Source: a virus (taxonomy: Duplodnaviria > Heunggongvirae > Uroviricota > Caudoviricetes). From it: 13,929 nt of DNA. The notes beneath the pieces were generated by a model. That model made no database searches. It was not told the origin of the DNA and worked only from the letters and a program-made list of their open reading frames with translations. The position numbers and the translations under genes were made by a program. The stretch is taken from positions 1 to 13,929 of IMG/VR virus record IMGVR_UViG_2713896908_000013; one strand, 5' to 3'. Numbering within the stretch: position 1 is the first letter of the stretch; each line of letters starts with the position of its first letter. Of the stretch, positions 7,545 to 10,876 are shown in pieces.

Positions 7545-8126
7545 CTATAACGCCGGCATTGTCGGCCACTCAATATCCGGTGCTACTGATGTATCAACAC
7601 GATTCAATAACACCCGATACTTCTTCCATTCTGCCAGCAACGAGAGCTCTTCCTCCGTCGCAATACCCAAATCTACGGCATCCTGAAGCGGTGCTATCTG
7701 CTCACTGGCTACCTGCATGAGGCTATTTTTTGTTTCGTCCGCTTCCCGGATCCGAAACAGTTTTTCTGCTTCTGCATCTTTCACCCAGGCTGTGCCGTTC
7801 CACTTCTGATATTCCCCTTCCGGGGATAACCAGGTGACATTTTCCGGTAACGGACCAAGTTCAGAAATAAATAACGCGCTCCCTGATTCCACGTTATAAA
7901 CCGTTTTACCCCGATGATCTTCAACGAGATGCCATGACTCCTCTTCACTGTTGAAAACAGCCACGAAACCAGCCGGAGTATCCGGTGGAGCAATATCCGT
8001 AGAATTAGCTGGCAGACCTGTATGCGGTGGAATATATGCATCACCTTCACCAATAAATTCATTAGTTCCGGCCAGCAGGTTATAGATTTTTATAGTCCGT
8101 GATTGTTCACTCATTCTGAATGCCAT
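7545..8126 (-). CDS. tfa: Tail fibre assembly protein (lambda Tfa-like)
   Basis: 193-aa ORF ([49 protein letters not shown]...) nearly identical to lambda Tfa as I recall it. Its ATG (8124-8126) overlaps the stf stop as TAATG. Confidence 0.93.
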
Positions 8127-10876
8127 TATGCAAGCCTCACAATATAGTTAAATGCGATGTTTTTGACGGTGTTTTCCGCGTTACCCGCAGCGTTAACGGT
8201 GATGGTATGTCCGTGCGCACCCAATGCCACTGTGTGTGTATGAGCACCAATACCTACGGTATGGTTATGCTGACCAATATTGACGGTATGAGCGTGAGCC
8301 CCGGCAGAGCTTGACACCTGGTTGGTTCCTGATACCTGTACGCGTTGTTTACCACCAACAGAGTCACCACCATAGCGCCCACCGACAGTGTGTGTATGCG
8401 CTCCCGTATTGTTTGTCGTTTTTGTGCCGTGGTTAAACGTGCTGACCGTTTTTGTCCCGTAATCAAACGAACTGGTTGTTTTCGTCCCCAAATCCGTACT
8501 GGATGCACTGGCACTGTGGGTGTGAGATTTAATGCCGTCCTGTTCCTGTGACAGAATTTCACGACCACTGGCGGGCTTGCCCTTAATCGTCCAGCCACGC
8601 ATATCAGGGATCACGCCTGACGGATAAGCGGCTGCAAGTTTCGGGTATGCAGATTTGTCAAAAGTCTGCCCCTGCATCAGGGCATAGCCAGACGGAACGG
8701 TATCTGATGGCCACGGGATTGGTGCGCCAGGCGGATAAAACTGCTCTGATGGCGTATAGAGTGAATAAACTGTACCGTCCGTTAACCCTTCCGGCTTATT
8801 AGCAGAATATGCTGGTGACGTATGAATCGTCACGCTGGCATTACTGGTATAATCCCATTGAATATTTACACCAGTCGCATAATTTCCGATTGCAACGTAA
8901 ATATCGTAAGTATCACCAGATGTATTGACCCAGGCAAAATTTGTAAACCCTGTCGATGTGCGCTGCCATAAAGCACCAGTAATCCCCTTCGGATTACCAT
9001 TACCTGCACGCAAAACAAGTTCAGATATACCTGCCTGTTGAGGTGACCCCACGTTAAATCCCGCGCCACCAATCAACGTAATTGAAACAACAGAACTCGC
9101 CTGTGGCATGGTTACCGTTGCTAATTTGAACCAACCAGCACCACCGCTGAATGACATTGTTGTTGAGTTAAGCGTACCAATATCTTTCGGCGTCAGTGTT
9201 ATATCCGCTGAAAGCGCCTTACCATTCACCTTACGGACAGAAGGTACCCGACCATTCGCATTGTCATTAGCTGCTTTCACTGCTTTCGATGTCGCAGCAA
9301 GCGTTTCAGATGCGCTGTTGGTTGTACTACTGAGCTGGACAATTCCTTTTTGTGCTGTCGTAGCGTCCTGAGCGGTATATTTCCCGTTAGCCAGGTCATA
9401 CGCGGCCTTAACGGCTTTTGGCGTTGCCGCCAGTGACTCGGAAGTGCTGTTGGTCGCACTGCTGAGCTGTACTATCCCCTTTTTCGTCGTGCTCGCATCC
9501 TCAAGCGCCACGGCGGATGCAATATCCTCTGCCCGTTTTGCTGCTGTCTCGGCGCGCGTTGCCGCGGATTCCGCCGTACTTTTGCTCTGAGCTGCCGCCG
9601 TCGCACTACCAGCTGCCTCTGTCGCCTTCGTGGATGCCGTCGTGGCGCTGCCTTTCGCTGCTGATGCCTGTCTGGTCGCCTCATCTTTTGAAGCAGACGC
9701 AGATGATGCCGATGACGCCGCCGAACTGGCGGACGATGCAGCTGCCGTTTTTGAGGATTCTGCACTGGTTTCCGACGCTTTCGCGTTCGTTTCGGATGTC
9801 TTCGCTGCGGATGCAGACCTCGCTGCTGCGCTGGCCTGTTCAGCGGCTTCGCCAGCCTTCGTTGTGGCTGTTGAAGCGGACAATGCAGCGCTTTCTGCCG
9901 ATTTTCCGGCGGCAGTGGCACTGGCTGAGGCCTGCCCGGCACTTGTTGACGCGGCACTGGCAGATGATGCAGCCGCTGTTTTTGAGCCTGCCGCAGCTGA
10001 GGCGCTCTGTCCCGCTGCCGTCTCAGAAGACCTGGCGTTCGTCTCGGACGTTTTTGCCGCCTTCGCGGAATTTCCTGCCGCCGTTGCCGAGGAAGCTGCA
10101 CTACTGGCGCTTGATGATGCGTTCGTTTCTGATGATTTCGCTGCCTCTTTTGAGGCCGCCGCATCCCGGGCTGAGGTGGCAGCTTCTGACGCCTTCGTGG
10201 TCGCGACGGATGCAGAAGTGGCTGCCGATTTTTGTGACGCTGCCGCATTCGTTTCTGACGTTTTCGCGGCACTGGCACTGGTAGCTGCCGCGCTTTTTGA
10301 GGACTCTGCAGCAGCAGCACTTTTCGATGCTTCACTGGCCTTTGTTGCTGCCGTTCCTGCGCTGGAAGATGCTGACTGAGCAGATGATGCAGCCTGTCCG
10401 GCTGACGTGCTGGCGGCACGTGCTGAGCCTGCAGCATCGGTTGCATGAGTTTCAGCCTCGCTGGCTGATGCACTGGCATCGGTGGCTGATTTTTTCGCGG
10501 CTGCCGTATTCTGTGCAACCGCGGAGGCGTTACGCGACACCTCTTCCACCATCTGCTCAAAGCGACGCAGTGCCTCCGGCCGTACATCATCCTCCGTCAT
10601 TGCACCGAGGAAATCATTCAGTGTGCCCGGCTTTGAGTCCTCATATACGGTGATAATCCCGGCGTGTGACGGCGGGAATCCCTCCACCAACAGACTGACG
10701 CTGTACTGACCATACTCAACGTCCATTGTGTAACGCCCGGCTTCATCCGGGTTTTCTGAGGCCACTGTGTTCACCACCACCGTGGTGCTGTTGCGCCTGG
10801 CCTTTAGCTGAATGGTGCAGTTTTGTATCGGCTTACCTGCACCATCTTTCAGTACACCTGAAATCTTTACTGCCAT
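8126..10876 (-). CDS. stf: Side tail fibre protein (lambda Stf-like)
   Basis: Start taken as the ATG at 10874-10876 ([38 protein letters not shown]...), matching the lambda Stf N-terminus, preceded by GGGGTGAG. The ORF track begins at a GTG two codons upstream. Long Ala/Ser/Thr-rich shaft with KTSETNA-type repeats, duplicated KGIVQLSS motif, His-rich C-terminal GAHxHTV repeats. TAA at 8126-8128. Confidence 0.93.
9265..9495 (-). repeat. In-frame tandem duplication inside stf encoding two copies of the KGIVQLSS(A/T)TNS(T/A)SE(S/T)LAAT(P/S)KAVKAA...ANG fibre motif
   Basis: Two about 44-aa units in the Stf translation ([44 protein letters not shown], then [34 protein letters not shown]). The matching DNA units are recognisable on the plus strand (gctgttggttgtactactgagctg near 9311 and gctgttggtcgcactgctgagctg near 9444). 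Coordinates approximate. Confidence 0.7.

Follow-up and report, generated by a model that had tools for sequence, protein, structure and literature searches.

When two genes meet on a single shared base, does the overlap connect the translation of their products, or is it simply a by-product of tight packing? We addressed this question for the junction between the side tail fibre gene stf and the tail fibre assembly gene tfa in a 13,929-nt stretch of caudovirus DNA (positions 1 to 13,929 of IMG/VR record IMGVR_UViG_2713896908_000013; this whole stretch is referred to below as the window), for which a sequence-only reading had pointed to a TAATG stop-start overlap at 8124-8128 and had described it as a classic translational-coupling arrangement. 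Inspection of the reverse complement, repeated once, gave CATAATGGCA for minus-strand positions 8130 to 8121, and the A at 8126 indeed belongs both to the stf stop codon TAA (8128-8126) and to the tfa start codon ATG (8126-8124). The junction falls into the -1 nt class of same-strand stop/start pairs with one base in common (T[AG]ATG), and the arrangement is kept in divergent homologues, so that its description as being of the coupling type holds. The overlap is real and conserved, but ordinary: since it is annotated in phage lambda and in many other phages, the arrangement was already known. The locus represents a lambda-type stf followed by tfa at the distal end of the late operon, and we consider it probable that tfa is translated by termination-reinitiation coupling across the 1-nt overlap.

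By itself, the TAATG motif is uninformative, because the pentamer occurs in the window at a frequency expected by chance (44 occurrences versus 39.6 +/- 6 in shuffles). What exceeds chance is its placement, which coincides exactly with the end of a long, homology-supported open reading frame (ORF) and with residue 1 of the next one, and which is kept in relatives.

The genes on either side of the junction

Judged by its homology, the upstream gene is a lambda-type side tail fibre gene. Its product contains the phage_tail_N domain (PF08400, 2.1e-71, residues 3-136), a prophage tail fibre N-terminal domain serving in attachment of the fibre to the tail, as well as two Phage_fiber_2 matches and a Collar match. 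Identity to lambda Stf is 78% across residues 1-352, and the two proteins are near-identical in their last ~60 aa, with the same C-terminus (...IVRLA*). Residues 1-94 align with the 9E7M tail fibre protein chain (1.5e-49), and residues 700-916 match the T4 gp37 tip structure 2XGF (E=1.7e-77) through the final residue; together with the lambda-identical C-terminus, the latter match assigns to Stf a gp37-like, His-rich C-terminal receptor-binding tip. In the mechanical ORF list, stf spans 8126..10882 and opens at GTG 10882 (918 codons), but the alignment indicates ATG 10876 as the true start, giving 916 rather than 918 aa. The ATG was chosen over the GTG because MAVKISG corresponds to lambda Stf from residue 1 onward and is preceded by GTGGGG.

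The downstream gene, in turn, is by profile and alignment a tail fibre assembly gene of the Caudo_TAP group, which comprises lambda Tfa, Mu U, P2 G and T4 gp38. The profile (PF02413, 4.6e-45; 153.4 bits against a cut-off of 22.1) is covered in full by residues 72-192, and the protein can be aligned with lambda Tfa along its entire length, starting at M1 (88% identity, residues 1-193), while its C-terminal part matches the Mu tail fibre assembly protein U (5YVQ_B). No identical match was present in genome_contigs, the best Tfa identity there being 90%. The 88% identity to lambda Tfa and the homology to Mu U suggest that the protein may act in folding or trimerisation of the fibre tip; the Mu fibre S and its Tfa, U, form a complex of solved structure (5YVQ). 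The tfa gene lies directly 3′ of its fibre gene, and the same order was seen in every relative looked at. Thus, both gene calls made from the sequence alone are borne out by Pfam and by full-length homology to the lambda proteins.

Two side observations concern these genes. The Ala/Ser/Thr-rich repetitive shaft of Stf (~9100-10650) produces several long ORFs that are not genes but artefacts of its composition; they lie in other frames as well as on the plus strand, such as 9472-10590 (-), 9517-10284 (+) and 9630-10379 (+). In addition, tfa at ~88% identity to that of the window was found on low-coverage contigs of up to ~48.5 kb in assemblies labelled Shewanella, Pseudomonas, Bradyrhizobium, Streptomyces, Paenibacillus and others (loci L011-L024, L027-L030 and L035-L044 from genome_contigs), and the presence of a lambda-type tfa in such assemblies looks like contamination of public data with phage lambda control DNA.

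The overlap in related phages

The same 1-nt overlap is annotated in phage PhiR68_2, in E. coli EC2 and in phage lambda, where the tfa and stf entries have one coordinate in common. Among the loci that were fetched with the window Tfa and had upstream sequence present, all of them lambda-type close relatives, the tfa ATG is accompanied by a TAA stop at offset -2 in 105 of 111, the remaining six having no long upstream ORF, and 99 of the loci fetched with this query carry an identical 31-nt context. In the set fetched with HK97 Tfa, the 1-nt overlap is present in 72 of the 76 loci with an upstream ORF; three others exhibit a 4-nt ATGA overlap, and one has a different arrangement. Moreover, the overlap is annotated in divergent homologues from five distant lineages with Tfa identities of 29-66%, namely Salmonella RE-2010 (66%), ESSI2_ev129 (55%), Yersinia MHG48 (41%), HK97 (33%) and Vibrio JSF39 (29%), although the Yersinia and Vibrio lineages rest on single annotated records, since MHG48 and JSF39 Tfa queries against viral_contigs yielded 1 and 0 loci, respectively. 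The fibre-then-chaperone order with a 1-nt overlap therefore extends from lambda to HK97, P2-like and Vibrio phages, in agreement with the conserved pairing that the sequence-only reading had assumed.

When all loci were pooled, 48 distinct ...VRxx* junction sequences were obtained in a table pre-selected for T[AG]ATG (no such selection was applied to the 105/111 and 72/76 counts); 31 of them have TAA as the stop and 17 have TGA, the overlap being kept, and the Tfa N-terminal pentapeptides behind the stop are of at least 20 different kinds. As both stops occur and the following pentapeptides are so diverse, the architecture of the junction outlasts changes of the stop codon and of the downstream module.

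A second, unrelated fibre class, with proteins ending in WGRLL*, WGVLL* or WGVGY*, displays a TAATG or TGATG join to a chaperone-sized ORF, with a GGGGAG-type run upstream (loci L152, L161, L175, L201 and L208 from viral_contigs). Because this class shows the overlap as well, the latter seems to be a design feature common to fibre/chaperone cassettes in general.

A ribosome-binding site within the last stf codons

The Val-Arg pair of the conserved fibre C-terminus (...IVRLA*) is encoded by GTGAGG, a Shine-Dalgarno (SD)-like sequence positioned 8 nt upstream of the tfa ATG. This embedded site had gone unmentioned in the earlier interpretation, which it strengthens. In all 48 distinct junctions the Arg codon is either AGG (43) or AGA (5) and never CGN, and the Val codon is GTG (42) or GTA (6) and never GTT or GTC. 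At the same time, nearby codons are free at synonymous sites: Asn is AAC or AAT, Tyr is TAC or TAT, Ile is ATT, ATC or ATA, and Ala is GCA, GCT, GCC or GCG. A change from AGG to CGG would be a single synonymous substitution, and AGR makes up 16% of Arg codons in the phage structural genes of the window. Since Arg is never CGN, AGR is infrequent locally and the neighbouring codons vary synonymously, the choice of Val-Arg codons looks constrained by SD function.

A rather unlikely extension would be that the final four sense codons of stf serve twice: the rare AGG/AGA codon, located three codons ahead of the stop, and GUGAGG would not only bring ribosomes to tfa but also stall the terminating ribosome, so that the Stf tip would meet nascent Tfa co-translationally and Tfa would act as a cis-acting chaperone. 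If true, this would account for the fixed Val-Arg codons across very different fibre/chaperone modules.

For host-range engineering, such as fibre-tip swaps or recoding of stf, the GTGAGG Val-Arg codons should be retained, since the tfa ribosome-binding site sits within the last stf codons, and the TAATG should be retained as well; otherwise, expression of the chaperone may suffer.

Coupled translation and its alternatives

Under termination-reinitiation coupling, a ribosome completing Stf would stop at UAA with the tfa AUG already next to its P site; the SD-like GUGAGG, 8 nt 5′ of the AUG, would retain the 30S subunit, and the retained ribosome would re-initiate on tfa. Such coupling would tie Tfa synthesis to Stf synthesis in amount, time and place, the presumed target of Tfa being the gp37-like C-terminal tip, which is the last-made portion of Stf. 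In this way tfa translation may depend on that of stf and thereby serve the supply of chaperone. Reporter tests of 14 overlapping pairs showed strict coupling in 13 of them, the SD contributing to differing extents (PMC6728339). Among gene spacings, -4 and -1 nt dominate by a wide margin and are over-represented where the products are subunits of a heteromeric complex, while gaps of ~20 nt abolish coupling (PMC10666635); like such overlap-enriched pairs, fibre and Tfa form a heteromeric complex in Mu (5YVQ). Several points weigh against coupling. Direct evidence on the translation or expression of lambda stf/tfa, including ribosome profiling, was not found in the literature. The locus counts given above overstate the number of independent observations, because the loci are phylogenetically related. 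The RNA fold of the junction revealed no significant structure masking the tfa ribosome-binding site (z=-0.58; an equally good or better fold was obtained for 50 of 200 shuffles), and, with the site not hidden and the SD being good, de novo initiation at this SD is feasible. Finally, overlap is not required for chaperone function, as the P2 H/G and T4 gp37/gp38 pairs lack it.

The same points lend some credit to a simpler, though on the whole unlikely, explanation, according to which the overlap reflects nothing but genome compaction, tfa being initiated de novo at its own GUGAGG, and the common base having no regulatory role. The SD is well spaced and its codons are constrained, its surroundings are unstructured, the T4 and P2 relatives function without overlap, and one of the 14 overlapping pairs tested was indeed uncoupled (PMC6728339). 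Compaction, however, does not easily account for the persistence of the overlap through TAA/TGA switching and changes of the Tfa N-terminus, and it should leave few-nt gaps or 4-nt overlaps in more than the 3 of 76 loci observed; besides, most of the tested -1 and -4 pairs were coupled even when an SD was present (PMC6728339).

The diversity of Tfa N-termini (at least 20 pentapeptides behind a near-constant stf 3′ end) could also be taken to mean that the conserved ~27-nt block at the stf 3′ end, together with the overlap, serves mainly as a DNA-level recombination linker for swapping tfa and host-range modules, all the more so as experiments have demonstrated that lambda and defective prophages recombine homologously within stf/tfa (PMC3945230). 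We regard this as very improbable: the block codes for AFNYIVR[AL]A*, the conserved strand at the C-terminus of the gp37-like tip, which matches 2XGF up to and including the final residue; outside the SD codons, synonymous sites within the block are free to vary, with no sign of added conservation at the DNA level; and homology to the closest relatives of the window is continuous across the junction, with no mosaic breakpoint there. A linker role is unnecessary, because constraints at the protein and SD levels suffice. It is hardly credible, on the other hand, that a sequencing error or a wrong start has produced the overlap as an artefact, with tfa truly beginning at the in-frame ATG 8114-8112 (Met5), even though Met5 is kept in the closest subfamily (MAFRM, MTFKM, MTFHM, MAFIM). 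Both frames match their homologues end to end, Stf aligning with lambda Stf and with the gp37 tip to the last residue and Tfa from M1 onward, and the identical junction is present in more than 100 independent assemblies; a frameshift, which the sequence-only reading had named as the event that would undo the overlap, was looked for, not seen, and rejected. Met5 was rejected as the tfa start on the grounds of SD spacing and conservation across families: the SD lies 8 nt from ATG 8126 versus ~20 nt from ATG 8114, other Tfa subfamilies without Met5 still have the overlapping ATG, and tfa codons 2-4 vary conservatively, as coding sequence does. Termination-reinitiation coupling thus remains the reading that we prefer.

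Genomic context

The features of the window are listed in the table below. With its genes arranged as J - lom - stf - tfa, the region makes up the distal end of a lambda-type late (tail) operon in a lambdoid prophage, as follows from the location of the Ail/Lom gene and of the J-like 3′ part upstream of stf-tfa. The terminator-like hairpin in the lom/stf interval would presumably be read through under Q antitermination, as in a lambda-type late operon. Between stf and tfa, the consensus scan detected no strong minus-strand promoter- or terminator-like site; within stf it found one weak terminator-like hairpin (8999-8977), although such sites occur near chance level (9 found versus 5.6 expected). 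The hairpin past the tfa stop, AAAAACGGAG-UGCAU-CUCCGUUUUU, was not listed by the consensus scan, but its folding energy of -13.8 kcal/mol (z=-3.49) was not reached by any of 200 shuffles; it probably marks the end of the stf-tfa transcript, dividing the late operon from an NleG cargo gene.

Table. Features of the window and the evidence for them.
Feature	Position	Strand	Evidence and remarks
Fourth ORF, N-terminally NleG-similar, partial at window edge	1-480	minus	No Pfam match
NleG-family type III effector genes (three, full)	6765-7427, 2004-2639, 900-1535	minus	PF06416, 1e-33 to 1e-41; downstream of tfa
Omptin protease gene	3963-4925	plus	PF01278, 2e-129; between NleG genes
Alpha/beta hydrolase gene	5054-6538	plus	Between NleG genes
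Terminator-like hairpin past tfa	7462..7487	minus	~60 nt past tfa stop; A-run/stem/U-run
tfa, tail fibre assembly protein gene, 193 aa	7545..8126	minus	ATG 8126-8124, stop TAG 7547-7545
TAATG stop-start overlap	8124..8128	minus	Direct reading; same arrangement in relatives
Shine-Dalgarno-like GTGAGG	8135..8140	minus	stf codons Val913-Arg914; GAGG core 8138-8135, 8 nt 5′ of tfa ATG
stf, side tail fibre gene, 916 aa	8126..10876	minus	ATG 10876-10874, stop TAA 8128-8126; Pfam and lambda Stf homology
Intrinsic-terminator-like hairpin and T-run, lom/stf interval	10893..10914	minus	Consensus scan; 8 pairs, 7 GC, then TTTTTT
Ail/Lom gene	10941-11540		PF06316, 1.7e-119; upstream of stf
Terminator-like hairpin after J	11589-11570		Consensus scan
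J-like host-specificity gene, 3′ part	11611-13908		Upstream of lom

The NleG array looks like the effector cargo region found at the end of lambdoid prophages in attaching-effacing pathogens. The block with the omptin and hydrolase genes (2864-6540) adjoins an integrase-like remnant; it is ~94.5% identical to the E. coli chromosomal ompT region, while the best identity of stf/tfa to complete E. coli genomes is ~88.5%. These values suggest that the host may be a closely related Escherichia, for instance E. albertii. The overlap itself matters little beyond the quality of annotation. It confirms that both genes are in frame, intact and arranged as in lambda, so that the prophage has probably kept a functional side tail fibre module.

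Comparison with known gene pairs

The closest counterpart of the locus is lambda stf (orf-401/orf-314)/tfa, which shows the same order of J, lom, stf and tfa, an identical junction (ATTGTGAGGCTTGCATAATGGCATTCAGAATG) and an annotated 1-nt overlap. The two differ in that the window Stf is longer (916 versus 774 aa): its Ala/Ser-rich shaft is extended, it contains two fibre repeats, and its His-rich tip shows indels. They also differ in that NleG effector genes are found 3′ of tfa in place of the lambda b-region genes. In HK97 and in the P2-like H/G-type pairs (RE-2010, ESSI2_ev129 and Yersinia MHG48), the fibre likewise ends in ...VR(A/L)(A/V)*, encoded with GT[GA]AG[GA], and the ATG of the chaperone gene shares one base with the fibre stop (TAATG or TGATG), although Tfa identity drops to 33-66%, the N-terminal domains are different, and some of the fibres are myovirus tail fibres.

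Outside fibre cassettes, the nearest likeness is to coupled pairs of the trpB/trpA type (the -1 nt class, TGATG or TAATG), with which the stf/tfa junction has in common a same-strand 1-nt overlap, an SD within the upstream gene, and products that form a complex (PMC6728339, PMC10666635).

In P2 H/G itself the genes do not overlap but are separated by a 1-nt gap. T4 gp37/gp38 retains the fibre-then-chaperone order, and residues 11-188 of the window Tfa show ~25% identity to gp38, but in T4-type phages the two genes are ~30 nt apart with no overlap, and gp38 has its own GGAG, with a GC hairpin between the GGAG and the ATG. We observed this hairpin as GGGGCTTCGGCCCC, or as GGGACTTCGGTCCC in JS09 (L129 and L132, ~1470-1504), and we take the arrangement to be the ‘split’ ribosome-binding site of T4 gene 38. 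The T4-type hairpin junction is a different solution for expressing a homologous chaperone.

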